Position numbers and translations under genes: made by a program. A stretch of DNA of 54,701 bases. It comes from an uncultured Eubacteriales bacterium (GTDB lineage Bacteria > Bacillota > Clostridia > Oscillospirales > CAG-382). Location of the stretch: assembly GCA_934444485.1 (NCBI GenBank), contig CAKSCN010000002.1, positions 1-54,701 of the forward strand. The letters run 5' to 3'. Below are positions 1,668 through 54,701 of this stretch, piece after piece (the first letter of the stretch is position 1; each line of letters begins with the position of its first letter). The notes beneath the pieces were generated by a model. It was not told where the DNA came from. It made no database searches and saw only the letters and a program-made list of their open reading frames with translations.

Positions 1668-1693
1668 GGGGTCAGCTTTTGAGGGCCGACCCC
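1668..1693 (-). terminator. Hairpin GGGGTC-N14-GACCCC between cassette genes (terminator or 5-prime UTR structure); second copy at 3621..3646
   Basis: Inverted repeat read directly. On the minus strand it is followed by the moderately U-rich UACCUAUGGUUUAUUUU and then the RBS of the next gene. Confidence 0.35.
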
Positions 1694-1740
1694 ACGGGTT
1701 GAGATGATTTTACATTAAAATGTCATTATTGGGGCGGATA

Positions 1741-2397
1741 TCAAAGCCCGGATAAGTCGTTTTTTATGAATCTCGAAATTGCCACAAAGTACTGTTCACG
1801 AGTAAAAATGCTCTGCGGAGCAAGTCTTCTTTCGCTTACTCCACGCATAATTCTGAAATCGTATACTACCCGCCATGCACCCGGGCGTGCGCCTATGCTT
1901 TCGTCCAAATCGTCAACATACTTATCCAAAAAATTAGCGGTTTGACTGAGTTTCCAGCCGGTTCTCCATCCCCCATACAGCCCTCCGAGGTAATCCGCCC
2001 CCTCGTCACGTGTCATGACCTTGTCGGGATTGAAATTTCCGTTCTCGTCAAGCGTCATCAATTCGTATTTCAGAGCGGTTCTCACGGCGTCCGTATACTC
2101 TGCGTTTTTTATTTCTGCGATATCTTTCGGCTCTTCAAAGTCGGTTGCCGGGAAATGCGGGTCTCCTTTGTTAAACAGTCTCACCATTACTACGGCGAAC
2201 TCTTCACGTGTTATTCCCTTGCGGTAATCGCAAAGAAGCTCATCGGGAATGAGTCCGAAGTCTTTCGCTTTCTCGACTTCTTCCTTTGCCCAATCGGAAA
2301 TCTCGTTGTCGTCAAGAGCAAAAGACACGGGTGCCGCCGACGTGAGCATAAGAAGCGACAGTAAAAGTGCGGTAATAATTTTAAATGCTTTTGTCAT
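1741..2397 (-). CDS. Small secreted SLH-like protein (218 aa)
   Basis: Signal peptide MTKAFKIITALLLSLLMLTSAAPVSFA, followed by SDWAKEEVEKAKDFGLIPDE...ITREEFAVVMVRL. Confidence 0.75.
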   Translation of the reverse strand: MTKAFKIITALLLSLLMLTSAAPVSFALDDNEISDWAKEEVEKAKDFGLIPDELLCDYRKGITREEFAVVMVRLFNKGDPHFPATDFEEPKDIAEIKNAEYTDAVRTALKYELMTLDENGNFNPDKVMTRDEGADYLGGLYGGWRTGWKLSQTANFLDKYVDDLDESIGARPGAWRVVYDFRIMRGVSERRLAPQSIFTREQYFVAISRFIKNDLSGL

Positions 2398-2456
2398 GGT
2401 ATCAGACCTTTCTTGTCATTAGTGTTTTCAGTCGAATCCGATGAAGCTCGTCAACA

Positions 2457-3587: not shown

Positions 3588-3660
3588 GTCATGATATCCC
3601 TCCAAAATAAACCATAGGCAGGGGTCAGCTTTTGAGGGCCGACCCCACGGGTTGAGATGA

Positions 3661-6647: not shown

Positions 6648-6666
6648 AGCGTGAATTCCTTTCGCT

Positions 6667-8028: not shown

Positions 8029-8384
8029 AAAACCACCAAACCAAATAAATAATTGAGAATTGAAAATTGAGAATGGAGAATTGAATCAGAGTGGAGAGTA
8101 CGAAAGCAAAGCTTTCGTCAGAGTGAAGAGTGGAGAGTGGAGAGTGGAGTTAAGGTAGAAAAGCTTTGCTTTTCAAATTGGAAATCTCTCTTCCGTTGTC
8201 GTACACGCTTTAAATTCGCACCAAATAATTATTGAAGAAAAACGACGGCAGGAGTTTTTCAACACTAACGTGCCGCAGACACATTTCACATCGAGCGAAG
8301 CGAGATATTTCACGCATTCCGCAAGGAATGCATTTCACGTGTTCCGCAAGGAACACATTTCACTTGGAAAAGCCCTGCTTTTCC
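8029..8384. repeat. Modular repeat locus L1 (microsatellite words, mini-hairpins, GTGAAAT four-hairpin module)
   Basis: Contents: GAGAAT/GAGTGGA 7-nt words at 8051-8086 and 8121-8149. Hairpins ACGAAAGC-AAA-GCTTTCGT, GAAAAGC-TTT-GCTTTTC and GAAAAAC-N10-GTTTTTC. ATTTCAC at 8283, 8307, 8332 and 8357, each separated by a hairpin. Confidence 0.85.
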
Positions 8385-11335
8385 TCTATCGCTCCCATAA
8401 GGCTTCTCAGGCGAATCTTCACCGCACCGAGGTTTGTTATCTCGTCTATTTTTATCTGGGTGTAGTACTTGCCGTGACTTTCGAGAATTGTGCGCACCTC
8501 GTCGGTCGTTATCGCATCGACGCCGCAGCCGAAGGACACAAGCTGAACAAGCTCGACGTCGCCGTGAGCCGCCGCATATCCTGCCGCACGGTAGAGTCTC
8601 GAATGGAAAGTCCACTGGTCAAGCACCGCCACCTTCTGCACAGGCGCAAGATGACATATGCTGTCCTCGCTCACAACGGCAAAGCCGAGAGAATTTGCAA
8701 GCTTGTCTATGCCGTGACCTATCTCCGGGTCGATGTGATAGGGACGTCCGGCAAGAACCATTATGCGGTTTCCGTTCGCCCTCGCTTCGGCAAGCGCCCT
8801 CTCGCCCTCGGCACGCAGAGCCACCGTGTACTTTTTGTACGCCGCAAAGCCCCTCTTCACCGCCGCCTTTACCTCACGCTTCGTTATCGTCCCGTCGTGC
8901 GCCGAAAGTGCCGGGTAAAGCGTGCGCACAAGAGCATTCTCACTCGCAACGCTGAGGTACGGGTGCAGAAAATCGACGTTCTTCAGACACTCCATGTTTG
9001 CGTGGAGAAGCTCGGCGTAGTAAGCGACTATCGGGCAGTTGTAGTGGTTGTCGCCGGCGTGTTCGTCGATGTTGTAGGTAAGACCGGGATAGAATATAGT
9101 CGTGATGCCGCTCTCGACAAGCTCCGCCATGTGACCGTGCATTATCTTCGCCGGGTAGCACGCCGTGTCGGAGGGAATGGTGAACTGTCCCTTTTCGTAG
9201 GTCGCACGGTTTGAAAGCGGCGTGAATACCACCTCGTAGCCGAGTGCGGTGAACAGCTCATGCCAGAGCGGCGCAAACTCATAGATTGAAAGTGCCGTGG
9301 GTATGCCGAGTTTTCCCCTCGCCGGAGCTTTTTCGTCCTTTTTCGGTACGAGCGACGTTATGTACTGTCTTTTCCACTCGTGCAGGTTCGGAAGCGGCTT
9401 TACGTCGGTAATACCGAGTCCCCTCTCGCACTGATTGCCCGAGATGAAGCGTTTGCCGTCCGAGAATTTGTTTATTGTGAGGTGACAGCCGTTCGCACAG
9501 CCGTGACATACCGCCGAGGTCGAGGTGTGGGTAAACTTCTCAAGCTCTTCGAGGGAAAGAAGCGTGCTTTCCTTGTTCTTCATGACGTGAAGCGCCGCAC
9601 CGTATGCGCCCATGAGTCCTGCGACCGACGGACGTATGACGTTTCTGCCAAGCTCCTTTTCAAAGGCACGGAGTACGGCGTCGTTGTAAAATGTGCCGCC
9701 CTGAACGACAATCGACTTTCCCAGCTCGTCCGGGTTTGCCGCACGGATAACCTTGTATATCGCATTCTTGACGACGCTCACCGAAAGACCTGCCGAGATG
9801 TCCTCGACCGATGCGCCGTCCTTCTGCGACTGCTTGACCGATGAATTCATGAACACCGTACAGCGTGAGCCGAGGTTGACGGGAGCCTTTGCGTGAAGTC
9901 CCTTTTCGGCAAACTCCGCAACATCGTAGCCCATCGACTTCGCAAAGGTCTCGATGAAAGAGCCGCAGCCGGAGGAACACGCTTCGTTGAGCATTATGCT
10001 GTCGATTGCGCCGTTGCGGATCTTGAAGCACTTGATGTCCTGACCTCCTATGTCGAGAATGAAATCGACGCCGGGCATGAAGTATTTCGCCGCCGTGTAG
10101 TGAGCTATTGTCTCAACGACGCCTTCGTCGGCGTGAAAGGCGTGCTTTATAAGATCCTCGCCGTAGCCCGTCACCGACGCACCGCAGATTTTTACTCTGC
10201 CGCCGCACTTTTTGCGGATGTCGATGAGAACCTCACGCACAAGCGTCACGGGGTTTCCCTTGTTGGAGCTGTAGTAAGAGTATATGATAGACTTGTCCTC
10301 TCCTATGAGAACGAGCTTTGTCGTTGTGCTTCCGCAGTCGATTCCGAGCCATGCGTTTCCGGAGTAATCCTCGATTTTTCCGACTTTTACCGACGCCTTT
10401 GCGTGGCGTTCGCAGAACTCTTTGTATTCGTTATCGTTCGCAAAGAGCGGAGGAAGCCTGTCCGCACCGACCTTTTCGGCTTTCGCACTGTCCTCTATCT
10501 TTTTTATTATGTCGCCGAACGCTATAGGCTCTCCGACGGCTCTGCCGGCATACATCGCCGCACCGTAAGCCACGGCGTAAAGAGCATATTCCGGGAACAC
10601 AGCCGTCTCGCCGTCAAGTCCGAGAGTTTCGCAGAAAGCCTTTTTGAGTCCGTTGCAGTAGTAGAGCGGACCGCCCAAGAACATGACCTTGCCCTCGATT
10701 TTCCGACCCTGTATAAGTCCCGTGACCGTCTGGTTGACGACCGCCTGATATATGCTTGCGGCAATGTCGCTTTTGTTTGCGCCCTGATTGAGAAGCGGCT
10801 GTATGTCGGTTTTTGCGAACACTCCGCATCTTGACGCTATGGGGTACTTCCTCGTTGCCTTAAGGCTTGCGGCGTCCATTTCGTCGGCGGTCATGTCGAG
10901 AAGCACCGCCATCTGGTCGATAAAAGCTCCCGTGCCGCCGGCGCAGGTACCGTTCATTCTTTCGTCGAAGCCGCCCTTGTAGAAGATAACCTTTGCGTCC
11001 TCGCCGCCAAGCTCGATAACGACTCCCGTGTCGGGTGCAAGAGCCGACACAACCTCGCCGGTCGAGTAAACCTCCTGCACGAAGGGAAGCCCGGCAGCCT
11101 CCGCAATACCGAGTCCGGCAGAACCCGAGACCGCAACACGGAGCTTTGATATGTCGTATTTCGGCGCAAGCTCGCTCTCCATGTCACGGAGCATTTCGAG
11201 TGTCGTGCTGCGTGCCTTTGAGAGGTGACGCTTATATTTTTCGTATATTACCTCGCCGCCGTCGAGTAAGACGAGTTTTGCCGTCGTCGAACCGATGTCG
11301 ATGCCGAGACACATTTTTTTGCTTTCGTTGGGCAT
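8360..11335 (-). CDS. CoA-substrate-specific enzyme activase: two BcrA/BadF/HgdC-type ATPase domains plus a C-terminal DUF2229-like domain
   Basis: Two acetate/sugar-kinase-fold starts, CLGIDIGSTTAKLVLLD and WLGIDCGSTTTKLVLIG. Cluster-ligand regions NGTCAGGTGAFIDQ and NEACSSGCGSFIET. The track start at 11404 is unlikely; GGAGA lies 11 nt before the ATG at 11335 (MPNESKK). Confidence 0.85.
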   Translation of the reverse strand: MPNESKKMCLGIDIGSTTAKLVLLDGGEVIYEKYKRHLSKARSTTLEMLRDMESELAPKYDISKLRVAVSGSAGLGIAEAAGLPFVQEVYSTGEVVSALAPDTGVVIELGGEDAKVIFYKGGFDERMNGTCAGGTGAFIDQMAVLLDMTADEMDAASLKATRKYPIASRCGVFAKTDIQPLLNQGANKSDIAASIYQAVVNQTVTGLIQGRKIEGKVMFLGGPLYYCNGLKKAFCETLGLDGETAVFPEYALYAVAYGAAMYAGRAVGEPIAFGDIIKKIEDSAKAEKVGADRLPPLFANDNEYKEFCERHAKASVKVGKIEDYSGNAWLGIDCGSTTTKLVLIGEDKSIIYSYYSSNKGNPVTLVREVLIDIRKKCGGRVKICGASVTGYGEDLIKHAFHADEGVVETIAHYTAAKYFMPGVDFILDIGGQDIKCFKIRNGAIDSIMLNEACSSGCGSFIETFAKSMGYDVAEFAEKGLHAKAPVNLGSRCTVFMNSSVKQSQKDGASVEDISAGLSVSVVKNAIYKVIRAANPDELGKSIVVQGGTFYNDAVLRAFEKELGRNVIRPSVAGLMGAYGAALHVMKNKESTLLSLEELEKFTHTSTSAVCHGCANGCHLTINKFSDGKRFISGNQCERGLGITDVKPLPNLHEWKRQYITSLVPKKDEKAPARGKLGIPTALSIYEFAPLWHELFTALGYEVVFTPLSNRATYEKGQFTIPSDTACYPAKIMHGHMAELVESGITTIFYPGLTYNIDEHAGDNHYNCPIVAYYAELLHANMECLKNVDFLHPYLSVASENALVRTLYPALSAHDGTITKREVKAAVKRGFAAYKKYTVALRAEGERALAEARANGNRIMVLAGRPYHIDPEIGHGIDKLANSLGFAVVSEDSICHLAPVQKVAVLDQWTFHSRLYRAAGYAAAHGDVELVQLVSFGCGVDAITTDEVRTILESHGKYYTQIKIDEITNLGAVKIRLRSLMGAIEEKQGFSK

Positions 11336-11619
11336 TTGCACCATGTCTCCTTGCCGTATAATTAACAAAGTTACACTTACGTATACTAACAGCATACCAC
11401 ACAAACCTAAAAATAGTCTTAAGTAAATGAAAATTTTTGTCGAATGACGCTAAGATTCCGCTAAGAAACGGTGGGAGTAATGTAATTTGTCGCTGCGAAT
11501 GGAATATGATGCCAAACACAAACCGAAGGCAATTGCGGCTTTTGTGTTAACGAAAAGTAAAAAACGGCTTTGCATTGACTTTATGCCGCACAAAACACTC
11601 TTATAATGCAAATTCGGTA

Positions 11620-11709: not shown

Positions 11710-12780
11710 ATGGAAATAATGACTGCAAAAGAAGCGGCGGAAAAATGGGGGATTTCTCAGAGAAGAGTTGCCGTTTTTTGCTCCGAGAACAGAATACCGG
11801 GTGCTCAAATGGTCGGGAATATGTGGCTTATTCCGAAAGGAACCGAAAAACCGGTTGATGCAAGATGCTCCGGCGTTGATAAAGACAGCACAAAGAGTGT
11901 AAAACCTTTTTTGAAATGGGCAGGCGGAAAAGGACAGCTGTTGAAGGAAATTGAGAAATACTATCCGTTCGGCGACGGCAAGATTACAAGGTATGCCGAA
12001 CCGTTTGTCGGCGGAGGTGCGGTGCTTTTCGACATTCTCGGCAAATACGAGCTTGAAGCGGTATATATAAGCGATATAAATGCGGAGCTTATAAACGCCT
12101 ACACAACAGTTCGTGATCACGTTGACGAGCTGACGGAAATGTTGTCTAAATATCAGAGCGAATATGTGCCTTTGGAAACTGAAATGCGGAAAAAGTACTA
12201 TGCTCAAAAAAGGGAAGTTTTCAATTCTTTGAAGACTGCCGGAAACGACAAGGACGGTATCGAAAAAGCGGCGCTTATGATTTTTTTGAACAAGACTTGT
12301 TTCAACGGCTTATACAGAGTCAACAGAAAGGGTTTGTTCAACGTACCCATGGGAGCGTATAAAAATCCTCTTATTTGTGACGAAAAGAATCTCTACGGCG
12401 TTTCCGAAAAGCTCCGTAACGTGAAAATAGTATGCGGCGATTATAAATTATCCGCCGATTTTATCGATGAACACACCTTTGCGTATTTCGACCCTCCGTA
12501 CAGACCGCTTACCGATACGGCAAGTTTTACGGCATATACGGAAAATTCATTCGACGATGATAAACAAATCGAACTCGCAAGGTTTGTTGACAAGATGAGC
12601 GAAAAAACGGCGAAGGTGACGGTGAGCAATTCAGAGCCGAAAAATATTGACGGAAATGACAGTTTCTTTGATGATATTTACGCTAATCACAGGATAAAGC
12701 AGGTAGAAGCAACAAGAATGATTAACTGTAACAGCGAGGCAAGAGGAAGAATTAAGGAGCTGCTTATCAGCAATTATTGA
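11710..12780 (+). CDS. Dam-family N6-adenine DNA methyltransferase with an N-terminal helix-turn-helix extension
   Basis: Motifs FLKWAGGKGQLL and FAYFDPPY (D12 class). The first ~45 aa, MTAKEAAEKWGISQRRVAVFCSENRIPGAQ, look like an excisionase/MerR-type HTH. RBS GAGGAGA 8 nt upstream. Confidence 0.9.
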   Translation: MEIMTAKEAAEKWGISQRRVAVFCSENRIPGAQMVGNMWLIPKGTEKPVDARCSGVDKDSTKSVKPFLKWAGGKGQLLKEIEKYYPFGDGKITRYAEPFVGGGAVLFDILGKYELEAVYISDINAELINAYTTVRDHVDELTEMLSKYQSEYVPLETEMRKKYYAQKREVFNSLKTAGNDKDGIEKAALMIFLNKTCFNGLYRVNRKGLFNVPMGAYKNPLICDEKNLYGVSEKLRNVKIVCGDYKLSADFIDEHTFAYFDPPYRPLTDTASFTAYTENSFDDDKQIELARFVDKMSEKTAKVTVSNSEPKNIDGNDSFFDDIYANHRIKQVEATRMINCNSEARGRIKELLISNY

Positions 12781-12792
12781 GGAGGTTTAAAA

Positions 12793-13329
12793 ATGGACAT
12801 AAGAGAAGGCACTCAACTTATAGATAAAGGCTCGAGAAAAGCAATCATAGAATTTGTTTTCACCGATTATATTATTTTTGTTTTTCAGGGGAGTTTGTCA
12901 CAGTTTGATATTGTTATTAAATACAGAAAAGACGGCAAGCGTATGAGGACTCCCAAACATATCCATTGGGTAGTAGATATTTTGATGAAAATGCAAGGCA
13001 ACGGAGAATTGACAAAGAAGTATTTGTTGTCTGTGCAAAACTGTTGGAATGCTTGTGTTCCGCTTTCAAACAATGATTTTGAAACACTGAAGAATTTAAT
13101 TGAAAACGGAGAAAAGAGAATTGAAATTGAACAGTATTTTGACTTAAATGATTTTGGCGAATATGATGTTGAATTTCTGTATGTTTTGATGGAGTTATTG
13201 GCAGTGCAAGAAAAGACAAACAGGGCAGATGCCTATATGTTTGGCAGTATTATTGAAGAATTGCTTGAAGCTGACAGAGATATTTTCAAAATTATTTCCA
13301 CGGCAGGCTTCGGCGGAAGAAGAGGTTGA
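12793..13329 (+). CDS. Hypothetical protein (178 aa) embedded in the R-M operon
   Basis: RBS GAGGAGG 8 nt upstream. Its stop TGA (13327-13329) is 1 nt before the endonuclease ATG. I could not recognise a motif. Confidence 0.65.
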   Translation: MDIREGTQLIDKGSRKAIIEFVFTDYIIFVFQGSLSQFDIVIKYRKDGKRMRTPKHIHWVVDILMKMQGNGELTKKYLLSVQNCWNACVPLSNNDFETLKNLIENGEKRIEIEQYFDLNDFGEYDVEFLYVLMELLAVQEKTNRADAYMFGSIIEELLEADRDIFKIISTAGFGGRRG

Positions 13330-13330
13330 T

Positions 13331-14194
13331 ATGACAAACAGAAATTTTAACACATGGCTTTCCGGTTTTCGCGAGAGCATTGCCGATTATTCCTATTACG
13401 TGAATTTTGAGAAAGTCTACAGGAATGTTGATAAGGTTAAGGTTGAACTCAACATATTGAATTCGCTTATCGGTTCAAGAGACATCGAAAGAGCTTTTGA
13501 CACTTTAATCGAAAGATATCCGGAAGTTTTAAGGTGCATTCCGTTACTGTTAGCAGTGAGGGCAAATGAGATTTATGCTATTGACGGAGACGGAGAATTT
13601 ATATACAACTTCAAAACTACAAACCAACCAATGGAACAGTACAAAGTATTTATGCAAAAAAACGGTTTGTTCGATTTGATATCTAATCACATTATCAATA
13701 ATTTGGTGGATTATGTAACCGGTGTTGAAACAGGACTTGATTCCAACGGCAGAAAGAACCGCACCGGTCACACCATGGAGAATTTGGTAGAAAGTTATAT
13801 TAAAAAAGCCGGATTTGTTAAAGATGAAAATTATTTCAAGGAAATGTATATTCATCAAATTACCGAAAAATGGGGCATGGATTTATCGGCGATTTCCAAT
13901 CAAGGTAAAATGGAAAAGCGTTTCGATTATGTAATTAAAACGCCTAATATGATTTATGGCATTGAAACTAACTTTTATGGCAGTGGCGGCAGTAAGCTAA
14001 ATGAAACAGCCCGTAGTTATAAAACACTGGCATTAGAAACCGATACCATAGACGGTTTTACATTTGTATGGTTTACAGACGGAAAAGGCTGGACAAGTGC
14101 AAGACATAATCTTGAAGAAACATTTGATGTTATGGAACACATTTATAATATTGATGATATGGAAAACGGGATAATTCAAGAGGTTTTTAAATAA
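13331..14194 (+). CDS. Type II restriction endonuclease, DpnII/MboI family (predicted GATC)
   Basis: 288 aa from the ATG at 13331; the track ORF starts earlier at 13229, inside the previous gene. Blocks NILNSLIGS, LVDYVTGVETGLDSNGRKNRTGHTMEN, NFYGSGGSKLNETARSYK and WFTDGKGW match my memory of R.DpnII. Confidence 0.8.
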   Translation: MTNRNFNTWLSGFRESIADYSYYVNFEKVYRNVDKVKVELNILNSLIGSRDIERAFDTLIERYPEVLRCIPLLLAVRANEIYAIDGDGEFIYNFKTTNQPMEQYKVFMQKNGLFDLISNHIINNLVDYVTGVETGLDSNGRKNRTGHTMENLVESYIKKAGFVKDENYFKEMYIHQITEKWGMDLSAISNQGKMEKRFDYVIKTPNMIYGIETNFYGSGGSKLNETARSYKTLALETDTIDGFTFVWFTDGKGWTSARHNLEETFDVMEHIYNIDDMENGIIQEVFK

Positions 14195-14943
14195 TGGCAG
14201 AAAAGAAAATTAAAAAGTGGGAGCCTGATGATTTTGAACTTGAAATGACTACGCACTGGTCATTCCCAAAGCGTGGCGATTGGGCAACTCATGATGCAAA
14301 ATGGCGTGGAAATTGGTCACCTTATATACCCAGAAATATTATATTAAGATATTCCGATGAGGGAGATTTAGTTCTTGATCAGTTTGCCGGAGGAGGTACT
14401 ACTCTTGTAGAAGCGAAGCTTTTGAATCGTAATATAATCGGCGTGGATATAAATGATATTGCCCTTGAGCGGTGCAGAGAAAAGACAAGCTTTGAATACG
14501 AACCGGCAAAAGGAAAAGTGTATATCAAGAAGGGCGATGCAAGGAAACTCGATTTTGTACCGGATGAAAGCATAGACCTTATATGCACGCACCCTCCGTA
14601 TGCCGATATTATCAAATACAGCGACGGTATTGACGGAGATTTGTCACAACTGAAAGTGAAGGATTTTCTCGAAGAAATGAAAAAGGTTGCGGCAGAGAGT
14701 TACCGTGTGCTAAAGAAAGATAAATTCTGCGCCGTTCTTGTGGGCGACACAAGACAAAAGGGCTGTATGATACCTATGTCTTTTGATGTAATGCGTATTT
14801 TTGAAGATGCAGGGTTCAAACTAAAGGAGCTTATTATAAAAGAACAACATAATTGTAAAGCAACGGGATATTGGAAAACCAACAGTGTAAAGTATAATTT
14901 TTTACTTATCGCCCACGAATATTTGTTTATCTTCAGAAAATGA
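14194..14943 (+). CDS. SAM-dependent DNA methyltransferase (N6-A or N4-C type), second methylase of the R-M operon
   Basis: LDQFAGGGTTLVEA (FxGxG) and THPPYADI (PPY catalytic motif). The start overlaps the endonuclease stop (TAATG). Confidence 0.75.
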   Translation: MAEKKIKKWEPDDFELEMTTHWSFPKRGDWATHDAKWRGNWSPYIPRNIILRYSDEGDLVLDQFAGGGTTLVEAKLLNRNIIGVDINDIALERCREKTSFEYEPAKGKVYIKKGDARKLDFVPDESIDLICTHPPYADIIKYSDGIDGDLSQLKVKDFLEEMKKVAAESYRVLKKDKFCAVLVGDTRQKGCMIPMSFDVMRIFEDAGFKLKELIIKEQHNCKATGYWKTNSVKYNFLLIAHEYLFIFRK

Positions 14944-16374: not shown

Positions 16375-16713
16375 TCATTCCCGGATGTTCTTCAGCTCTT
16401 CAATCAATACCGGAATGTCATTTTTCAGTGTGTTGTATATCACGCTCATGTCAACGTTGCCGTACTCGTGGACTATGCGGTTTCGGAGTCCCTTGACTGC
16501 TCTCCACGGAATGGACGAATGTGAGGCTTTGAACGCATCGCTGAGCTTTCCCGAGTTTTCCGATACCTGTATAAGTCGGAACATCACGGAATCGACAAGA
16601 ACCTCGTTGCTTTCAAGCTCATCCTGCGTCAGACCGTCAGTGTGAGCGAGGACGAAAGACAGGTCGGAGATGATTTTGTCGGTGTAATACCGGCCTGTTT
16701 TTACATTATCCAT
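16375..16713 (-). CDS. hepT: HepT-like (DUF86) toxin of a type VII HepT/MNT pair
   Basis: RNRIVHEY matches the Rx4HxY motif. 112 aa, overlapping the upstream MNT gene by 8 nt. Confidence 0.85.
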   Translation of the reverse strand: MDNVKTGRYYTDKIISDLSFVLAHTDGLTQDELESNEVLVDSVMFRLIQVSENSGKLSDAFKASHSSIPWRAVKGLRNRIVHEYGNVDMSVIYNTLKNDIPVLIEELKNIRE

Positions 16714-17176
16714 AGATTTTCACACCGTCCTTGAGGATTTCGTTTACGAGAAGGGGATTATCTTTCAGCTGATCCGTGTTCAGAACATCCGCATTTTTTC
16801 GCAGTTTTTCGTGCAAAAGCTCAACGAGGTCGTAAAACTTTATTCCCGTGACCGGTGTGGATACAAGAAGGTCAACGTCGCTTTGTTCCGTTGCCTTGTT
16901 TTTTGCATACGAGCCGAAGAGATAGCAGTATTCCACCTCGAAAGCCGGAAAAATCTCTTCGCAAATCTCTTTTATACGCTCTGCGGTGAGAATGCCGTGA
17001 CTCTCGTCAACAAACCCGTATTCGGAAAGCTTCCGCATAATATACGCATACTTTAACGATGTGCTTTTTGAACCGTCGTTTTCGTAATTGATGTATGTGC
17101 GAAGAGGCATCCCGAGATATGCGGCGCATTCTTTTTGCGTCAGCTTTTTGCTCTTTCGCAGTTCTTTAAGCGTCAA
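16706..17176 (-). CDS. MNT nucleotidyltransferase antitoxin fused to an N-terminal XRE-type HTH
   Basis: LFGSYAKNKATEQSDVDLLV (GS...DxD NTase motif) and N-terminal LKELRKSKKLTQKECAAYLGMPLRTYINYE. Start uncertain: the TTG at 17176 follows GAGGTGA, while the track uses the GTG at 17185. Confidence 0.8.
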   Translation of the reverse strand: MTLKELRKSKKLTQKECAAYLGMPLRTYINYENDGSKSTSLKYAYIMRKLSEYGFVDESHGILTAERIKEICEEIFPAFEVEYCYLFGSYAKNKATEQSDVDLLVSTPVTGIKFYDLVELLHEKLRKNADVLNTDQLKDNPLLVNEILKDGVKIYG

Positions 17177-17194
17177 ACTTATCACCTCGGTACT

Positions 17195-19509: not shown

Positions 19510-19587
19510 TGCGTCGTTAGCTCAGCTGGATAGAGTGACTGGCTACGAACCAGTAGGTCAGGGGTTCGAGTCCCTTACGACGCGCCA
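19510..19587 (+). tRNA. tRNA-Arg (anticodon ACG), CCA encoded
   Basis: Hand fold: acceptor GCGTCGT/ACGACGC, D arm GCTC-AGCTGGATA-GAGT, anticodon arm ACTGG-CTACGAA-CCAGT, T arm GGGGG-TTCGAGT-CCCTT, discriminator G, then CCA. By my count the variable region is 6 nt (AGGTCA). Confidence 0.9.
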
Positions 19588-19982
19588 ACAAAGGTTGCAC
19601 ACCGAATGGTGTGTGACCTTTGTTTTTTGTCAGGGACTCGAACGGTTCGTGTCAAAAAAATAGTCCGGGGAATGTTTTTCCGCACCGGTGCCGTCCGCAG
19701 ACGGGTGAGTCCCTTACGACGCGCCAATAAAAGCTATGCATTGTATGATGTGTGGCTTTTTTTGTTATTGACTCGAACGGTGCGTGTCAAAAAATAGTCC
19801 GGGGAATGTTTTTCCGCACCGGTGCCGTCCGCAGACGGGCGAGTCCCTTACGACGCGCCAATAAAAGCTATGCATTGTATGATGTGTGGCTTTTTTGTTA
19901 TTGACTCGAACGGTTCGTGTCAAAAAAATAGTCCGGGGAATGTTTTTCCGCACCGGTGCCGCCCGCAGACTGCGACTCGCCA
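19568..19982 (+). repeat. Tandem units of about 122-139 bp, each ending in a copy of the tRNA-Arg 3-prime end
   Basis: GAGTCCCTTACGACGCGCCA occurs at 19568, 19707 and 19841, with a degenerate GCGACTCGCCA at 19972. Each unit also carries GACTCGAAC, the inverted T-loop, and a decayed hairpin. Confidence 0.85.
19589..19628 (+). terminator. Intrinsic terminator after tRNA-Arg
   Basis: CAAAGGTTGCACACC-GAAT-GGTGTGTGACCTTTG followed by TTTTTT. Confidence 0.8.
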
Positions 19983-23477: not shown

Positions 23478-23927
23478 ACATAGCTTTGAAAAGCGAAGCT
23501 TTTTGCCCACAATCGTCAATTGTCAATTTTGAAAGCGCAGCTTCCCGTCATCGCACAACATTTAGACTCGCACAATATAATCATTGCAGAAAAACGACGT
23601 CAGGAGTTTTTCCACCCCAATTCTCCATTTTCCACTTTCAATTCTCAATTATTGAAAAGCGACTTTAGGAGCTTTTCCACAACAACGTTGCGAAGCAACA
23701 TTTCACATCGAGCGCAGCGAGATATTTCACGCACCGAAGGTGCATTTCACGGTTTGCGTAAGCAAAACATTTCACTCGAAAGCGAAGCTTTCATTTTACC
23801 GCTCACGCCTCAAATTCGCACCATATAATCATTGCAGAAAAACGACGTCAGGAGTTTTTCCACCCCAATTCTCCATTCTCAATTCTCCATTCTCCACTCT
23901 CCACTCTCCACTCTCCATTCTTCACTC
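23478..23927. repeat. Modular repeat locus L2
   Basis: Same modules as L1, and it abuts the AraC stop codon. ATTTCAC at 23700, 23724, 23744 and 23769, separated by hairpins. Internal 62-nt direct repeat 23568-23629 / 23816-23877 with 1 mismatch. CGTCAAT and CTCCA(T/C)T 7-nt words. Confidence 0.85.
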
Positions 23928-24725
23928 GCTCCCCCTCGGCGTCTCGCCGAATTCCTTTTTGTACGCCTTGCAGAAGTAGCTCGTGTCACTGTAACCGCAG
24001 GCGGCGGCTATCAGCTCAAGCTTTACGTGAGGCTCACTCTTCAGCATTACCTTTGCGTGCGAAAGACGGATTTTCCCGAGCATTTCAAATGCACTCATAC
24101 CGTACTTCGCCGAAAAATCACGGCAGAGCTTCGACTTCGAGTAGGGGTAAAACTCCATTATGTCGCCGAGAGTGAGCGGCTTTGAGTAGTTTGCCTCGAG
24201 AAAGTGAAGTACGTTCTCTATCGGCGTGTATTCGACCTTCAGTGCCTCTCCGAAGAAAGCGCATACCGTTTTGTAAGTCAGTGCCGACAGCATGGCTGAA
24301 TCACGCAGACTTTCGCTCTTTTCGAGAAATTCCTTTATCTCAAGCTCGGCACGCTCCGAGTTCTTCCCCTTGTATGCTCCGCTTGTCCCCACACCGTAGT
24401 AATCAAAAATGCTGTCGCAGATCGTGCCGCCGAAACCGAGAAACGTCGTCTTGAAATCGTCGTCGCCGTAGTAATAGTGCGGTACGTCCCGACGGACGAA
24501 AAACATATCGCCCTTGTCGAGCATGACCTCGTCCCCGTTTGCACCGAATACTCCGCTCCCGTCGGAAACCACAAACAGCTGCTCTATCCATACCCCGTGA
24601 ATGCTGCATATGTCCTCCTGACGGTGGCATATCTCACAGGTCGCAGGGTAAATCGGCAGCGGCTCCTCTCGGTCGAATATGAAGGTCTTCATCCTCTCGT
24701 GTATTCTCGTCTGAAACGTTTTCAT
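23922..24725 (-). CDS. AraC family transcriptional regulator (cupin + HTH)
   Basis: The C-terminus LTLGDIMEFYPYSKSKLCRDFSAKYGMSAFEMLGKIRLSHAKVML...GYSDTSYFCKAYKKEFGETP is the typical AraC dual HTH. Confidence 0.85.
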   Translation of the reverse strand: MKTFQTRIHERMKTFIFDREEPLPIYPATCEICHRQEDICSIHGVWIEQLFVVSDGSGVFGANGDEVMLDKGDMFFVRRDVPHYYYGDDDFKTTFLGFGGTICDSIFDYYGVGTSGAYKGKNSERAELEIKEFLEKSESLRDSAMLSALTYKTVCAFFGEALKVEYTPIENVLHFLEANYSKPLTLGDIMEFYPYSKSKLCRDFSAKYGMSAFEMLGKIRLSHAKVMLKSEPHVKLELIAAACGYSDTSYFCKAYKKEFGETPRGSE

Positions 24726-30858: not shown

Positions 30859-31745
30859 GGGCGCAGGGCTTACGGGGGCTTACGGGGGCGTTCTTTCTTA
30901 AAAGAAAGAACCAAAGAACTTTAAGGAGCAAAGCTGGCGCTTTGCAGGGACGGATTATATTGTAATTTGAAGGCACTGCCGAAGTCGGCGTCCATATACG
31001 CAAGCCGCCGACTTAGATGAGGTAAGACACATCTTATCCGAGATAGTACGAAAGTCGGTGGCGCATATATGCGCATCATATGCGCAAGTGACCGACTTAG
31101 ATTTTTGTAGCATCAGATTTTGTGGGGAATGTAATTCGGGGAAACACCGTTCGCAATGAAACGCCTCGCACAGCTCGACAATTTCATTTTTGCGAAGATG
31201 AGGCTCTTGGCGTGTGCGTGAATTGTGGTTGGCACTTTCTTTGTGGGAAATTCGGTAAAAATGTAGCTCTTTGGCGTGTACGCAGCTCGAAGTTCACATT
31301 CTCTCCTTGGTGTATTGGAGGCGGCAAAGCCGCCAGAGAAATTGCGAAGCAATTTACTCTCGAGTTGACCGTGTCAACTCCGGAGGCATCCTCTTGTGCA
31401 ACCGGTTGCAAGGCAACCTCTGGAGCTGTCAGCGAAGCTGACTGAGGGACTGTCGGATAAGCACTCTCTCCATGGGGAATTTCGGGGAAAATGTAGCACT
31501 TTGACGTGTACATAGCTCGAGATTCGCATTCTCTCCATGGTATACCGTAGGGACACACAGGATGCGAAGCATCTGCGTAGATTGCTCCGTCCGCAAAAAC
31601 CCAACGTAAGATTATGTATACCTCTTCGTAGAACCGCAACAATCGGCAAGCACCGTACAAACGATAAAGAAAAACGGCTTTCGCCGTTTTTCTGCATCAA
31701 TTCTCAATTGCACATCAGTCTTCGGTTTACTCGTAATTGAAGCCG
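30859..31745. repeat. Modular repeat locus L3 (887 nt without a credible ORF)
   Basis: A chain of mini-hairpins: TTCTTTCTT/AAGAAAGAA, GCAAAGC-TGGC-GCTTTGC, GGCGGC-AAA-GCCGCC, AAATTGC-GAA-GCAATTT, GAGTTGAC-CGT-GTCAACTC, TTGCAACC/GGTTGCAA, GTCAGC-GAA-GCTGAC, GGATGC-GAA-GCATCT and GAAAAACGGC-TTTC-GCCGTTTTTC. There is also a 66-nt direct repeat, 31245-31310 / 31475-31540. Confidence 0.85.
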
Positions 31746-39273: not shown

Positions 39274-39745
39274 CACCGCAAAACAATTGACGATTGTGGA
39301 GTTGACGAGGTCAACTCGAGAGGAAATGTACGCTTACGCTGAGTGCTTCGCACTCACATTTCTCTCCGCTTCCTACATAGCGTTTGTGCTTGATTGAATG
39401 GTGCGAATTTTGAGGTTGTACCATAGACGGAATGTCGGATTTTATCCGAGGTTGTTGGGGTTCAATGTGGTGCGATTATCACAAACCTCCATGACATTCC
39501 GTAGGGCGGGTGAACGCAGACTACGCTAGCGTAATCTCCCACCGCAAGAACTCAACGTAAAGTTATGTATATCGCCATGTAGAAAATCGACAAGCGGTAA
39601 GCACTATACAATATTGAAGAAAAGCGAAGCTTTTCCACCACAATTTTCCATTTTCCGCTCTCAATTCTCAATTTCAAAGCGACTTCAGGAGCTTTTCAAC
39701 GCTAATCGTCAATCGTCAATTCCCAATTTCAACGCCGCTTTGTAA
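39274..39745. repeat. Modular repeat locus L4
   Basis: Shares GAGTTGAC-NNN-GTCAACTC and the 113-116-nt element with L3. Shares GAAAAGC-GAA-GCTTTTC, CTCAATT words and GAAAAGC-N10-GCTTTTC with L1, L2 and L5. CGTCAAT words at 39703-39735. Confidence 0.85.
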
Positions 39746-52216: not shown

Positions 52217-52900
52217 TTACATATCGGCAACGCCGCACGCTTCCTCGAGGTTGTTTACGGTGTAGGTTGCGCCGTTCGGTTCGGGAAAATTGCGTCCCCA
52301 TTCGACAAGGCACGTATCAATGCCGAACGCATCCCCACCCTTGATGTCGGTTGCGGGGGAGTCGCCTATCATGAGCGAGCGGCTCTTGTCAAAGTCACGT
52401 ATGCGCTCTGCGGCACGCTCAAAGAAGCGCACGTCGGGCTTTCTCTCGCCAAGCTCTTCGGAGGTGAATATATCCTCGAAGTACTTCTCCGTGCCGGACG
52501 CCGCAAGTCTCGAACGCTGCGTTTTTCCGATGCCGTTCGAGAGGATAAAGAGCCTGTGGTTTTCCGAGAGCTTTTCGAGAACCGTCGCCGCACCGGGCAT
52601 AAGGTCGTGTCCCTCGGACAAAAGACTTCTGTAGTATGCGTCCCATTCTGCACCGTCAACCGTGTGACCGAGACTCTGCATTGTGAGCGTGAAGCGGTTT
52701 GCAAGAATATCGGCGACCTCGATTTTGCCGCATTCGTAGTCGTGCCAGAGACGTAAATTTATCGAGCGGTAGAGCTTTTCGGTGTCGGCGTCGAACGGAA
52801 AACCGAACTTTTTGAACACGCACGGCAGCGACTCACGTTCGCTCTTGTCGAAGTCGAGAATTGTGTTGTCGAGGTCGAAGAGAAGTATGGGGTATTTCAT
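52217..52900 (-). CDS. HAD-IA hydrolase, YjjG-like nucleotidase
   Basis: Motif I LLFDLDNTILDF, then SNG, K-P, and motif IV MIGDSPATDIKGG. The ATG overlaps the stop of the upstream CARF-nuclease gene (ATGA). Confidence 0.85.
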   Translation of the reverse strand: MKYPILLFDLDNTILDFDKSERESLPCVFKKFGFPFDADTEKLYRSINLRLWHDYECGKIEVADILANRFTLTMQSLGHTVDGAEWDAYYRSLLSEGHDLMPGAATVLEKLSENHRLFILSNGIGKTQRSRLAASGTEKYFEDIFTSEELGERKPDVRFFERAAERIRDFDKSRSLMIGDSPATDIKGGDAFGIDTCLVEWGRNFPEPNGATYTVNNLEEACGVADM

Positions 52901-54120
52901 CTTTGCATCTTCCTTTCGTCCGTGGCGCAGATACTGCGGAGCTTTGCGATGAATTTTTCCGCAGAAATGACGTCGGTGTCGCCTATCACGGCAATTCCCA
53001 TGTTTTCGGCTCTTTCGAGGAGCGAGAGTCGTGCCGATTCGTTCGCACGGTCGGACGTTGTCACGAGTATCTTCACTGCGTGTTCGCCGCCGTAATGACG
53101 TGCCACGGTGTCAAGCTCGTAGAGTGCTTCCTTTTTTGCGCCGCCGTTCTTGCACGAGATGAATACCGGCACAAAGCCGTGCATGGCAACGACGTCGATT
53201 TCATTTTTCGTACCGCTCTGCGGAACGCCGTCCCAGTCTGCCGAAACGCTCACGGCAATGTCGCCGAAGAAGTCCTTTTCACATTCGGAGAGCATAACGG
53301 CGCACATATAGACGTAGTTTTCGAGAATGTTCCCGGCTTTCGACATACATGAGCGCACAAAATCGTTCTTGTAGCGGTAGGATATTCTGCCGTCGAAGAC
53401 ACGGTAGCCGCTCACAAGACCGGCGAGCATGAGGTCCGACATGAAGTTCACCGACGGAAGCTCGATGTTCTTAAAACGCTCGCTTTTTAAGTAGATGTTT
53501 ATTCTGTTTCCGTTTCTGCCGTACTGTTCGAGAGAAGAGAGCACGGAAATCTGCCTGTTCCAGAGCCTTGTGTCACGGCGGCAAATGCCCCACAGAGCGT
53601 TAATGTCACGCCTGTCGTTTTCGGAAAGCACCCTGCGGCAGTCGGAGTCACGCTCGCTCAAAACCGCACCGCCGTAAAGTGCGACCGATTCGCCGACCGA
53701 CAGACCTTCACGGTAAATTCGGGCGTGTTCGGCAAAGCTCTGCGCATTTTTAAGCGGCAGTACCGTCATGCCGTTTACGTCGGACTTCACCATGCAGAGC
53801 TTCATTACCTGCGCTACCGCACCGAAAGCCGCCGCAATAAGCTCGTCGCCTCCCGAGAGGTCGAACACGCAGCTGTCGGCGTACTTGTTTGCAATGTAGG
53901 CAACGGCACGCTCAATTTCGGTAAAGTCGCCGTGCGGCACATTGACGTACTCGACGAAGCGTGTGCCGGCGTTCTTTTTGAGAAAGCGTGTGAGAGCCGA
54001 ACGGCGAGACTCGGTCATTTCGTCGGCGTAGCCGATATAGACGGCACGCTCGGGTCGCAGGAGCATTACTCCGGCGGCATTTTCAAGCTGACAGGGGTCA
54101 AATAGTTCGATAAGTGTCAT
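52897..54120 (-). CDS. Card1/Can2-like protein: CARF-like N-terminal domain + PD-(D/E)xK nuclease domain (DUF1887-like)
   Basis: N-terminal FDLSGGDELIAAAFG resembles the CARF D-x-(T/S)-G-G motif. C-terminal NEIDVVAMHGFVPVFISCKNGGAKKEALYELDTVARHYGGEHAVKILVTT resembles the ExD...(E/S)CK nuclease core of DUF1887. RBS GGAGG. Confidence 0.6.
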   Translation of the reverse strand: MTLIELFDPCQLENAAGVMLLRPERAVYIGYADEMTESRRSALTRFLKKNAGTRFVEYVNVPHGDFTEIERAVAYIANKYADSCVFDLSGGDELIAAAFGAVAQVMKLCMVKSDVNGMTVLPLKNAQSFAEHARIYREGLSVGESVALYGGAVLSERDSDCRRVLSENDRRDINALWGICRRDTRLWNRQISVLSSLEQYGRNGNRINIYLKSERFKNIELPSVNFMSDLMLAGLVSGYRVFDGRISYRYKNDFVRSCMSKAGNILENYVYMCAVMLSECEKDFFGDIAVSVSADWDGVPQSGTKNEIDVVAMHGFVPVFISCKNGGAKKEALYELDTVARHYGGEHAVKILVTTSDRANESARLSLLERAENMGIAVIGDTDVISAEKFIAKLRSICATDERKMQR

Positions 54121-54701
54121 AGAACCTCCGGAGAGAGAAAAGCGGGGCTTTTCAGTGAAATTTGCCCTTCGGGCAAGTGATATACGCCTGCGGCGTGTGA
54201 AATATCTCGCTTCGCTCGATGTGAAATGTTGCTTCGCAACGTTGGGGAGGAAAAGCTCCTAAAGTCGCTTTGAAATTGAGAGTGGAGAGTGGAGAATGGA
54301 GAATTGATGTTGAAAAGCGGAGCTTTTCAAAAATTGAAAATTGAGAATGGAAAATGGAGAATTGATGTGGAAAAACGCTGAAGCGTTTTTCTTCAATATT
54401 TGAATGGTGCGGAGTTTGAGGGTGTGCGGCGAAGGGAAAGAAAGGCAGAATTCATAATGCATAATTCATAATGCATAATGCATAATTGACGTTGAAAAGC
54501 TTAGCTTTTCTTCAATATTTGAATGGTGCGGAGTTTGAGGGTGTGCGGCGAAGGGAAAGAAAGGCAGAATTCATAATGCATAATTCATAATGCATAATGC
54601 ATAATTGACGTTGAAAAGCTTAGCTTTTCTTCAATATTTGAATGGTGCGGAGTTTGAGGGTGTGCGGCGAAGGGAAAGAAAGGCAGAATTCATAATGCAT
54701 A
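54121..54701. repeat. Modular repeat locus L5, including a 119-bp tandem array that runs off the window
   Basis: Four-hairpin GTGAAAT module at 54137-54240. GAGAATG/GAGTGGA words at 54272-54309 and 54329-54367. Identical 119-bp units at 54391-54509 and 54510-54628, with a partial unit at 54629-54701. Confidence 0.9.

Follow-up and report, generated by a model that had tools for sequence, protein, structure and literature searches.

Within the window, i.e. the entire 54,701-nt stretch of DNA that was analyzed, there are three modules in which short hairpins alternate with the heptamer GTGAAAT. A sequence-only reading had pointed them out, and the hairpins it quoted are all present, at 54137-54240 on the plus strand (copy D) and at 8270-8383 (copy A) and 23687-23792 (copy B) on the minus strand; for copy A, its location and strand hold, but its start of 8384 is one base off (8383). 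Its count of four linkers per copy could likewise be read directly in all three, the one GTGATAT being in copy D. As a whole element, copy D spans 54137-54271 (+). It opens with the leading hairpin GAAAAGC-GGG-GCTTTTC (54137-54153), which has an A-rich 5' arm and a T-rich 3' arm and appears terminator-like in both directions. The array core, read at 54155-54240, contains the linkers GTGAAAT (54155-54161), GTGATAT (54177-54183), GTGAAAT (54197-54203), and GTGAAAT (54221-54227), each followed by a hairpin (54162-54176, 54184-54196, 54204-54220, and 54228-54240, respectively). The third of these is the conserved ATCTCGC-TTC-GCTCGAT, which carries a TC/TC mismatch. A purine-rich tail, GTTGGGGAG (54241-54249), precedes the trailing hairpin GAAAAGC-TCCTAAAGTC-GCTTT(G) (54250-54271), and this same tail and trailing hairpin also follow copy B. 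A near-copy of the tail/trailing-hairpin module can be found near 39676-39698 as well, where it is not accompanied by an array. The sole visible neighbor of copy D is the minus-strand gene 52897-54120, to which the copy is antisense, lying about 17-37 nt upstream of its ATG (54120), with the leading hairpin ending 17 nt away from this codon.

Copy A (8237-8383, minus strand) begins with a leading hairpin at 8367-8383, continues with linkers at 8357-8363, 8332-8338, 8307-8313, and 8283-8289 and hairpins at 8339-8356, 8314-8331, 8290-8306, and 8270-8282, and ends in a tail (8261-8269) and trailing hairpin (8237-8260). Its first two hairpins form a 25-nt tandem duplicate in which the stem changes are fully compensated. 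The TGA stop codon of the ORF at 8360-11404 falls within linker 1 and therefore the array must belong to the 3' UTR of that mRNA. Copy B (23654-23792, minus strand) has its leading hairpin at 23778-23792, linkers at 23769-23775, 23744-23750, 23724-23730, and 23700-23706, hairpins at 23751-23768, 23731-23743, 23707-23723, and 23687-23699, a tail at 23678-23686, and a trailing hairpin at 23654-23677. It is located in a convergent intergenic region, 146 nt downstream of a co-oriented AraC-family gene (23922-24725). The arrays sit in a mosaic of other repeat modules, comprising heptad repeats and 15 GAAAAGC-loop-GCTTTTC "punctuation" hairpins, one of which is the leading hairpin of copy D.

The arrangement goes beyond chance expectation. 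The window contains 20 occurrences of GTGAAAT versus 9.2 expected, with 11 of the 20 inside the three modules, and three heptamers separated by 10-22 nt each (GTGAAAT-N10-22-GTGAAAT-N10-22-GTGAAAT) were matched four times versus 0.00 in 100 shuffles. A generic scan of the window for at least three adjacent perfect hairpins recovered these three sites plus one unrelated cluster, while our covariance model R1 yielded exactly three matches, namely copy D with 65.8 bits (54155-54227), copy A with 100 bits (8283-8363), and copy B with 76.9 bits (23700-23775).

Identity with the Gut-1 motif

Judged by Rfam covariance-model scores and anatomy, the three window modules are copies of the catalogued Gut-1 RNA motif (RF01706). 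Copy D scores 63.4 bits at 54153-54232, which is above the curated gathering score of 50 bits, whereas copy A (48.1 bits at 8260-8340, E-value 2e-8) and copy B (47.5 bits at 23680-23752, E-value 3e-8, both in 601-nt searches) fall 2-2.5 bits short, because the three-hairpin Gut-1 model slides along the four hairpins and onto hairpins 2-4. Related arrays from genome-bin loci score 50-80 bits, and other Rfam families gave sub-threshold noise only (e.g. Clostridiales-2, 17 bits versus a threshold of 58.6). The short hairpins in a row with GUGAAAU between them that characterize Gut-1 are found four to a copy, with as many linkers (one GTGATAT). The modules further resemble Gut-1 in the covarying stems of their short hairpins, in their C-G closed UNC/UUGC loops, and in their habitat, uncultured gut bacteria. 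They differ in that the Rfam model comprises three hairpins; each window copy contains four, framed by a leading and a trailing one. The sequence-only reading had recognized no described RNA family and had named a clear match to one as a result that would count against it; RF01706 is such a match and contradicts it on this point.

Gut-1 was reported in 2010 from human-gut metagenomes, without host, gene context, or function, and was described as "human gut only, not in any sequenced organism" (Weinberg et al. 2010, PMC2864571). The same authors graded it as "certainly an RNA" and not cis-regulatory (PMC2864571). Rfam lists it as "Gene; sRNA", and our literature search for Gut-1, RF01706, or the heptamer found nothing beyond the 2010 study. 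The motif identity is thus already known and, as the re-discovery of an orphan motif, ordinary. Compared with the published description, the hosts can now be placed and a multi-copy, terminator-linked, and tRNA-linked behavior has come into view.

Pairing, loops, and strand

Among 147 related arrays from gut Clostridia and Akkermansia bins, 95.2% of the cells pair versus 50.7% in shuffles, a value to be read with the caveat that the alignment was fitted to the structure model, and none of 500 pairing shuffles reached the observed level. In these arrays, all 21 of the 21 modeled pairs change on both sides in a compensatory manner, the covariation score reaches 0.76, against 0.14 for shuffles and no more than 0.07 for slid partners, and the slid-partner controls pair at about 40%. 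The proposal that selection acts upon pairing and not upon stem sequence is therefore borne out. The same is true of the observation that hairpin 3 is conserved among the window copies while hairpins 1 and 2 are unrelated, as can be read directly, although hairpin 4 (partly) and the trailer are conserved as well. Across families, the linkers are almost invariant, whereas the stems differ. One possible compensatory linker-linker case was encountered (locus L059, GTGAAGT with ACTTCAC). Linker-linker pairing between the arrays of a composite would create a ladder of four-way junctions.

The loops are asymmetric, as had been noted: UUC, UGC, and UUGC on the GTGAAAT strand and GNA or GNRA on the other, such that the strand used by Rfam is not the one with the stable C(GNA)G and C(GNRA)G loop types. 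The stems are 96% Watson-Crick, and G.U and A.C are found 27 and 23 times, respectively, among 1638 pairs, so that G.U is not enriched over A.C; divided by context, the counts are 10/9, 3/8, and 14/6, and the differences are not significant. These counts were consequently uninformative for strand assignment. The lack of a G.U excess is unusual for a one-strand RNA and also fits a role at the DNA level or on both strands. GTGAAAT as the putative RNA strand, which the sequence-only reading implied, agrees with Rfam and with gene context, the latter in the co-orientation of arrays with upstream genes and tRNAs and in the 3'-UTR position of copy A, but this agreement does not prove the strand.

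A further feature of the arrays is that their hairpin units are shuffled and duplicated. Depending upon the array, ATCTCGC...GCTCGAT is its first, second, third, or only hairpin. Such shuffling and duplication of hairpin units, including the tandem duplicate in copy A, is what might be expected if the arrays were a non-functional by-product of tandem duplication or slippage at 7-nt microhomologies, with template-switch repair keeping the palindromes perfect and the resulting selfish or neutral DNA being tolerated only in intergenic 3' regions. The equal frequency of G:T and A:C mismatches is also compatible with this scenario. However, the Clostridia families and Akkermansia have the linker, the C-G closing pair, the classes of loop, and the overall architecture in common, the closing stem covaries, and the orientation to tRNA genes is strict, all of which would be hard to maintain without selection. 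Accordingly, we regard a purely mutational origin as very unlikely.

Distribution and genomic setting

Exact matches to proteins of the window were found in metagenome assemblies only (ERZ28613651, ERZ27287185, and Logan ERR7738626). In over 70 genome bins of gut Clostridia and Akkermansia, none of whose loci belongs to a close relative of the window organism, it is apparent that Gut-1 arrays are carried by Clostridia (Oscillospiraceae, Acutalibacteraceae, Ruminococcaceae, Christensenellaceae, and others) and by Akkermansia, with the bins originating from the guts of humans, ruminants, deer, and horses. Their density is considerable, with three copies in the 54.7-kb window and two up to seven arrays per 8-kb locus. 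Several matches are spread over separate contigs of a single genome bin, and contig ends likewise carry several. Most arrays (104/119) do not overlap a long ORF, and the genes beside them are ordinary and unrelated, being either housekeeping or accessory. Akkermansia also encodes sister arrays with other linkers, one of which is CGAGATT and another GATATAACC, paired with its complement GGTTATATC. A phage origin was considered and set aside, as a pattern scan of viral contigs gave almost only unrelated tandem repeats; among the approximately 125 linker arrays listed (120 stretches), about 11 passed a loose hairpin filter, several of these being false positives.

Most arrays lie 3' of a co-oriented unit, and strikingly often they come right after tRNA genes. 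Of the 119 arrays, 41 have a tRNA gene no more than 300 nt away, and all but one of these (40/41) are downstream of it, the linked tRNAs spanning 14 isotypes. GTGAAAT is on the tRNA strand in 25 of the 41, including the tRNA-nearest array of each inverted pair, whereas the 16 with the reverse orientation are for the most part the distal partners of a pair. The 5' neighbor of a solo array is co-oriented in 30 cases versus 13 in which it is not. Not every copy fits a 3'-end role, as copy D is antisense to its neighbor and upstream of the start codon. The leading hairpin, with an A-tract in its 5' arm and a T-tract in its 3' arm, looks like a bidirectional intrinsic terminator. A terminator-like hairpin was found at the 5' end of 11 of the 39 solo arrays, compared with 2-3 of 39 on the other side, and in many genome bins the leading hairpin qualifies as a good bidirectional terminator (A-tract, stem, T6), which under a strict rule applies to 11/39 solo and 18/58 paired arrays. 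The leading hairpins of the window (GAAAAGC-NNN-GCTTTTC) are weak, and at copy D the consensus scan detected no terminator. Behind the array hairpins themselves stands GUGAAAU on one strand and AUUUCAC on the other, an intrinsic terminator being a GC-rich hairpin with a U-tract directly after it.

This setting bears directly upon the Rfam designation, under which Gut-1 might be a stand-alone trans-acting sRNA of approximately 80-110 nt that exposes 3-5 single-stranded GUGAAAU sites in its linkers and acts as a CsrB/RsmZ-style protein sponge or scaffold. Like the CsrB/RsmZ sponge sRNAs, Gut-1 presents a short invariant motif in many repeats, displayed by hairpins with varying stems, and an invariant heptamer amid free stems is what repeated single-stranded binding sites would lead one to expect. 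The earlier RNA grading (Weinberg et al. 2010, PMC2864571) argues in the same direction, as does the predicted fold of the GUGAAAU strand (-51.4 kcal/mol, z = -3.0). On the other hand, the GGA motifs of CsrB/RsmZ are mainly in loops, and these RNAs come from single-copy genes that possess a promoter and a terminator of their own, whereas the Gut-1 motif is an inter-hairpin linker within a dispersed repeat, with several copies per genome and different hairpins in each. A conserved promoter was not found upstream of the arrays, only 2 of the 39 solo arrays have a terminator behind them, and the terminator-like hairpin instead precedes the array. Copy A even begins within the stop codon of a gene, and both array orientations occur inside composite units. 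Furthermore, each stem can be lengthened (A-U plus U.G) by the last two bases of one linker and the opening two of the linker that follows, which leaves GAA alone unpaired. A stand-alone sRNA therefore seems improbable to us. What the arrays display is the behavior of a multi-copy, terminator-linked extragenic repeat and not that of a lone sRNA gene or of a regulator of one gene.

Two further properties concern the repeat as a unit of DNA. Firstly, 32 of the 33 array pairs are convergent, i.e. inverted; in the inverted partner array, AUUUCAC stands behind every GC-rich hairpin. Secondly, two loci (L033 and L064) each contain two copies that share approximately 99% identity along some 212 nt; this stretch starts at the A-tract of the terminator hairpin and ends with the outermost ATTTCAC, beyond which the flanks are unrelated. 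No target-site duplication was evident by eye in these two aligned pairs. Both properties would be natural for an element working at the DNA level, the palindromes of which extrude as cruciforms or fold as single-stranded hairpins while the linkers remain duplex, serving as recognition or cleavage sites for an HUH/Y1 transposase that mobilizes the unit (REP-RAYT/REPIN style) or for a topoisomerase (BIME-2/gyrase style) after heavily transcribed tRNA genes. Sharp-edged duplicated units, inverted pairs as in REPINs and BIMEs, and a position downstream of highly transcribed tRNA genes all speak for it, as do the largely Watson-Crick stems, in which G:T is no commoner than A:C, and the C(GNA)G triloops of the ATTTCAC strand, which are an unusually stable type of DNA mini-hairpin. 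In addition, a Y1_Tnp gene is located approximately 220 nt from an array in one Akkermansiaceae locus (L008). Despite this, Y1_Tnp is absent from all of the Clostridia loci and from the window, and three Akkermansia relatives of the L008 transposase, in 14 loci, have different inverted repeats of their own on either side and no GTGAAAT arrays. RAYT/IS200-like mobilization was not supported either, since tblastn searches of about 2 Mb, a span that limits their sensitivity, with an IS200 TnpA query and with the L008 Y1_Tnp protein returned the L008 gene only. A palindrome of 13-18 bp does not readily extrude from duplex DNA, the variable stems speak against sequence-specific protein recognition of the hairpins, and the orientation bias relative to tRNA and upstream genes suits a role at the transcript level at least equally. 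Overall, we consider a DNA-level element unlikely.

Gut-1 as a possible terminator-linked hairpin-array repeat

From the comparative sequence data, our best reading is that Gut-1 may constitute a REP/BIME-like, terminator-linked hairpin-array repeat and not a classical single-copy sRNA, for which we estimate a probability of about 0.45; its mechanism is inferred. Presumably, the array would be transcribed either as the tail of the upstream unit or through read-through, and at the tRNA loci, where a strong terminator stands ahead of the array on the GTGAAAT strand, only by the latter route. A row of very stable hairpins could then form a barrier or insulator between adjoining transcription units, which might block 3' exonucleases or serve as a back-up terminator. 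The invariant linkers would be putative recognition sites for a host factor common to these gut bacteria.

There are parallels to the REP, BIME, and REPIN elements of Enterobacteria and Pseudomonas. Gut-1 resembles these in being hairpin-forming and non-coding, in appearing multi-copy and mostly extragenic, in combining in direct and inverted fashion with other short modules into mosaics, in its preference for the 3' ends of transcription units, and in its duplication as discrete units. In contrast, the REP palindrome is kept in sequence within a genome, whereas the Gut-1 stems are free and the 7-nt linker alone is conserved; the Gut-1 units are also much shorter (11-22 nt hairpins), the taxa differ, and a cognate RAYT was not found for Gut-1 in the roughly 2 Mb searched. 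The view of the sequence-only reading that the modules are neither CRISPR nor of REP type accordingly stands for CRISPR and for classical REP with a conserved palindrome. The BOX elements of Streptococcus pneumoniae (boxA-boxB(n)-boxC) are similar in being modular extragenic repeats of a Firmicute, with a variable number of internal units between distinct end modules and stable predicted transcript folds. Unlike Gut-1, BOX modules are conserved in sequence and 45-59 nt in length, and have neither an invariant short linker with variable hairpins nor a known tRNA linkage.

Several other known systems were considered and dismissed. CRISPR arrays have repeats of 23-50 nt and non-palindromic spacers, whereas here the conserved part is 7 nt, the variable parts are self-complementary and 11-22 nt in length, and there are at most 4-5 units. 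The RNA of type III toxin-antitoxin systems (ToxI-like), in which near-identical tandem repeats stand just ahead of a toxin endoribonuclease gene, was rejected as the units differ in sequence and the neighbors are unrelated housekeeping or accessory genes. Integron attC sites and parS/NBS half-sites were dropped because the anatomy is unfit or the resemblance is limited to the 7-mer.

A broader, and in our estimation rather doubtful, proposition is that "linker-conserved hairpin arrays" could represent a hitherto unrecognized class of interspersed repeats with Gut-1 as its known core, in which a fixed A/T-rich linker is combined with free hairpins in a non-autonomous unit of approximately 210 nt with a bidirectional terminator hairpin. 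Within the genomes of gut Clostridia and Akkermansia, such units would spread in fixed orientation to the 3' ends of transcription units, tRNA genes included, with the linker specifying a trans-acting factor.

Beyond the only paper that we found, the current analysis places Gut-1 in uncultured gut Clostridia and Akkermansia, describes it as a multi-copy repeat that is duplicated as a sharply bounded unit, and provides a genomic rule for its location, i.e. after a terminator hairpin and directly behind tRNA genes, in fixed orientation and often then followed by an inverted partner array. If these observations hold, they would call for caution against annotating each Gut-1 copy as an sRNA gene. 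Moreover, the Gut-1 "sRNA" would turn into a tractable question of how abundant gut bacteria punctuate or insulate their transcription units and, further, of what reads the invariant GUGAAAU linker.

Identity of the hairpin modules in the window

The three four-hairpin modules described in the sequence-only reading are present in the window, at 54137-54240 (+, copy D), 8270-8383 (-, copy A) and 23687-23792 (-, copy B). On the strand that spells GTGAAAT, each begins with a leading hairpin whose 5' arm is rich in A and whose 3' arm is rich in T (GAAAAGC-NNN-GCTTTTC or GAAAGC-TTC-GCTTTC), continues with four linkers, all GTGAAAT except for one GTGATAT and each with a hairpin of 13-18 nt behind it, and ends with a purine-rich tail (GTTGGGGAG, GTTGTTGTG or GTTAGTGTT) and a trailing hairpin, again of GAAAAGC...GCTTTTC type, whose loop measures 10 nt. 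A chance origin is excluded: GTGAAAT occurs 20 times versus 9.2 expected, with 11 of the 20 inside the modules, the triple-linker pattern gives 4 matches versus 0.00 in 100 shuffles, a generic scan for runs of perfect hairpins returns only the three modules and one unrelated cluster, and a covariance model finds exactly three matches in the window.

An Rfam scan of the whole window yielded three matches above threshold, a T-box leader, a tRNA and the Gut-1 motif (RF01706), the last of which falls on copy D (54153-54232, +) at 63.4 bits, where the gathering score is 50. In a local search, copies A and B scored 48.1 and 47.5 bits, respectively. The Rfam model comprises three hairpins, which on a four-hairpin array align to hairpins 1-3 (copy D) or 2-4, and the alignments indicate that A and B remain below threshold because placement on hairpins 2-4 leaves the 3' flank unmatched. 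The identity of the modules with Gut-1 is therefore practically certain. The initial claim that they belong to no described family was wrong, as the Rfam search it had itself proposed, with a hit to an existing family counting against it, gives just such a clear match. Weinberg et al. 2010 (PMC2864571) described Gut-1 as "certainly an RNA" that is neither cis-regulatory nor a riboswitch, so the finding as such is already known; our literature search for Gut-1 found no mention beyond that paper.

Covariation and hairpin anatomy

Scanning one genome per species for three linkers at 10-22 nt spacing matched at least 120 loci; about two thirds of those listed are true linker-plus-hairpin arrays and the remainder unrelated tandem repeats. 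Among the matches listed, the true arrays score 50-80 bits with Rfam Gut-1 and fall into two groups, namely four Akkermansia/Akkermansiaceae bins and uncultured gut Clostridia of human, ruminant, deer, horse and bird hosts (Oscillospiraceae, Acutalibacteraceae, Ruminococcaceae, Christensenellaceae, Faecousia and unclassified "Eubacteriales" or "Clostridia bacterium" bins). With 11 arrays as its basis, a three-hairpin model recovered at least 147 arrays from at least 82 sources. In the resulting 147-array alignment, standard pairing occupies 95.2% of cells versus 50.7% in shuffles (none of 500 as high), both-sided changes occur at 21 of 21 pairs, compensatory cells number 1110 versus 296 in shuffles, and sliding the partner by 1-3 columns lowers pairing to 34-43%, all of these figures being somewhat inflated by the fit of the alignment to the model. 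Raw, alignment-free hairpin listings likewise exhibit stem covariation. Both the pairing and the linker sequence are thus under selection, and the covarying stems of the sequence-only reading are borne out.

Across 284 distinct hairpins, stem length ranges over 3-9 bp and peaks at 5 and 7, a C-G pair closes the loop in nearly every case, and the loops on the GTGAAAT strand are TTC, TGC, TAC, TTGC or TTAC. Watson-Crick pairs make up 96%, and G:T pairs (27) are in no excess over A:C (23). On the GTGAAAT strand, the two bases that end one linker could pair with the two that open the following one, adding one A-U and one U.G pair to each stem and leaving only GAA of the linker unpaired, whereas on the opposite strand the second of these pairs would become a C.A mismatch. 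Hairpins 1 and 2 of copy A form a 25-nt tandem duplicate in which loop and linker are identical and all four stem differences are compensated. That the arrays are slippage products, whether neutral or selfish, strikes us as very unlikely.

Hairpin 3 of the window (54204-54220, 8290-8306 and 23707-23723) reads ATCTCGC-loop-GCTCGAT and conserves an internal TC/TC mismatch. Eighteen metagenome contigs also carry it, and there it may be the first, second, third or sole hairpin of an array; hairpin units are therefore shuffled modules. A G-C to A-T exchange yields an ATCTCAC...GTTCGAT variant. The mismatch is kept across many organisms at any array position (L245-L262 and the window), which suggests a specific recognition module within arrays of otherwise free sequence.

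Genomic setting, tRNA linkage and duplication

The arrays appear to be multi-copy and extragenic. There are three in the 54.7 kb of the window and seven in one 8-kb Akkermansia locus; several bins have several array-bearing contigs, with arrays frequently at contig ends. Among the matches listed, their neighbors are ordinary, unrelated genes with no tie to one gene family. Copy A starts within the TGA of a 1014-aa BcrAD/BadFG-type gene and thus certainly lies in the 3' UTR of that mRNA, and copy B lies 146 nt past an AraC-family gene, in the spacer between two convergent genes. Copy D departs from this pattern, being antisense to a Card1-like-domain gene (52897-54120), with its first linker just 34 nt upstream of the ATG. 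A stand-alone sRNA of the sponge type would fit the invariant linkers, but the copy number, the missing promoter and terminator and the position of copy A render it improbable.

Copies A, B and D are all set within a mosaic of other short repeats, among them heptad repeats, a TTCAATA...GGTGCG module and 15 hairpins of the GAAAAGC type. These "punctuation" hairpins fit the pattern GAAA(A)(G/A)C-loop-G(C/T)TTT(T)C, are all found in repeat-rich intergenic regions (8102-8383, 23589-23860, 31669-31692, 39619-39635 and 54137-54629) and bracket the Gut-1 arrays as well as the other components; near 39676 there is a trailing module with no array attached. Degenerate heptad tandem repeats (GGAGAAT, GGAGAGT, TGAGAAT and complements) adjoin the hairpin modules at 8051-8149, 23868-23927, 39640-39673 and 54273-54360 and produce spurious promoter-like matches. 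A 119-nt unit, present 2.6 times at 100% identity (54387-54701) and continuing past the window end, holds GCATAAT heptads and a GAAAAGC hairpin; it shows a weak, non-significant resemblance to Rfam Clostridiales-2 (17 bits versus 58.6). At 19511-19970, a tRNA gene and terminator are followed by a 134-nt repeat (2.6 copies), every copy of which bears the tRNA 3' end GAGTCCCTTACGACGCGCCA; these may be integration-site remnants. The window also includes a ~1.9-kb tandem duplication of paralogous SLH-domain protein genes (291-3632, 80-96% identity) and defense-type genes, namely the Card1-like endonuclease-domain gene adjoining copy D (- strand), a DpnII-type restriction gene with two methyltransferases (11710-14943, +) and a HepT/MNT toxin-antitoxin pair (16375-17185, -).

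Among the matches listed, 41 of 119 arrays have a tRNA gene within 300 nt, and 40 of these 41 lie downstream of the tRNA (e.g. L033:94-385, and others at loci L017, L064, L073, L007, L058 and L114 of the scan). Since the tRNAs span 14 isotypes, this linkage does not reflect one orthologous locus. GTGAAAT lies on the tRNA's strand in 25 of the 41, including the tRNA-proximal member of each inverted pair (26-72 nt), and most of the other 16, which have it on the opposite strand, are the distal members of pairs. Order and orientation are fixed: the tRNA comes first, then a bidirectional terminator-like hairpin, then an array that has GTGAAAT on the strand of the tRNA and, often, an inverted second array, and 40 of the 41 tRNA-linked arrays conform to this. 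The published description of Gut-1 is silent on the rule, and its alignment file (Weinberg et al. 2010, PMC2864571) annotates neither tRNAs nor terminators. In composite-bearing genome bins, the leading hairpin has the classic make-up of a bidirectional terminator (A-tract, GC-rich stem, T6), and the window has a weaker form of it in GAAAAGC-NNN-GCTTTTC. Array orientation is likewise non-random among unpaired arrays in the matches listed, as the 5'-side feature is co-oriented in 30 versus 13, and a terminator-like hairpin stands at the 5' end in 11 of 39 versus only 2-3 of 39 on the other side.

Inverted pairs occur in many genome bins, and 32 of 33 among the matches listed read GTGAAAT...GTGAAAT followed by ATTTCAC...ATTTCAC. 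In these composites, a closing stem of 10-12 bp, absent from the Rfam Gut-1 model, surrounds the terminator- or tRNA-proximal array (e.g. L033:209-219 with 360-370). Its sequence varies by lineage, with four covarying variants (GAAATAAATCC, GAAATTCGCC, GAAATTTGCCC and TAAATCCACCC); the distal arm is perfectly complementary in every case and directly precedes the first ATTTCAC, and the 5' arm could form a competing local hairpin. The composite is also duplicated as a bounded unit of ~212 nt at ~99% identity, with two copies each in L033 (175-395 and 2905-3125) and L064 (4262-4475 and 4977-5190). The unit comprises the terminator hairpin and both arrays and has sharp edges, set by the terminator A-tract on one side and the outermost ATTTCAC on the other. 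Its flanking sequences share no similarity, and inspection by eye reveals no target duplication at either locus.

Such sharp boundaries, together with the inverted pairing, the lack of a G.U excess and the GNA/GNRA loops on the strand opposite GTGAAAT, would suit a DNA-level element whose hairpins or cruciforms are recognized by an HUH transposase or topoisomerase. We nevertheless regard this as unlikely, given the failed RAYT test. A Y1_Tnp (IS200/RAYT-like) gene does lie ~220 nt from a Gut-1 array in an Akkermansiaceae locus (L008:7300-7842, -), but the proximity looks coincidental, because different REP-like inverted repeats border its relatives in Akkermansia; no Y1_Tnp gene was found in the Clostridia loci listed.

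A proposed punctuation of transcription units

Repeat-like behavior of Gut-1 arrays is probable. We tentatively favor the reading that they act as REP/BIME- or BOX-like punctuation of transcription units (probability about 0.45). An array would be transcribed as a 3' tail or via read-through, could serve as an exonuclease barrier, back-up terminator or insulator, and its GTGAAAT linker might be read by a conserved host factor, although any such specific mechanism is doubtful. Gut-1 arrays appear to work most like REP/BIME and BOX repeats, yet they fail on two defining features of REP elements, a conserved palindrome and a cognate RAYT, and should not be filed as such.

Unexpectedly, the same hairpin-array grammar appears with different linkers in an Akkermansia sp. 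bin (L004:2200-2900 and 5750-7000): CGAGATT in some arrays and GATATAACC in others, the latter being followed by arrays whose linker is the complement, GGTTATATC. These are arranged as tandem units of ~195 nt that surround a 23S-rRNA-IVS-protein gene, and they point to a possible wider class of such arrays. Our literature search found no paper that gives the hosts, the rule for tRNAs and terminators or the boundaries of the unit, and these points merit a short follow-up.
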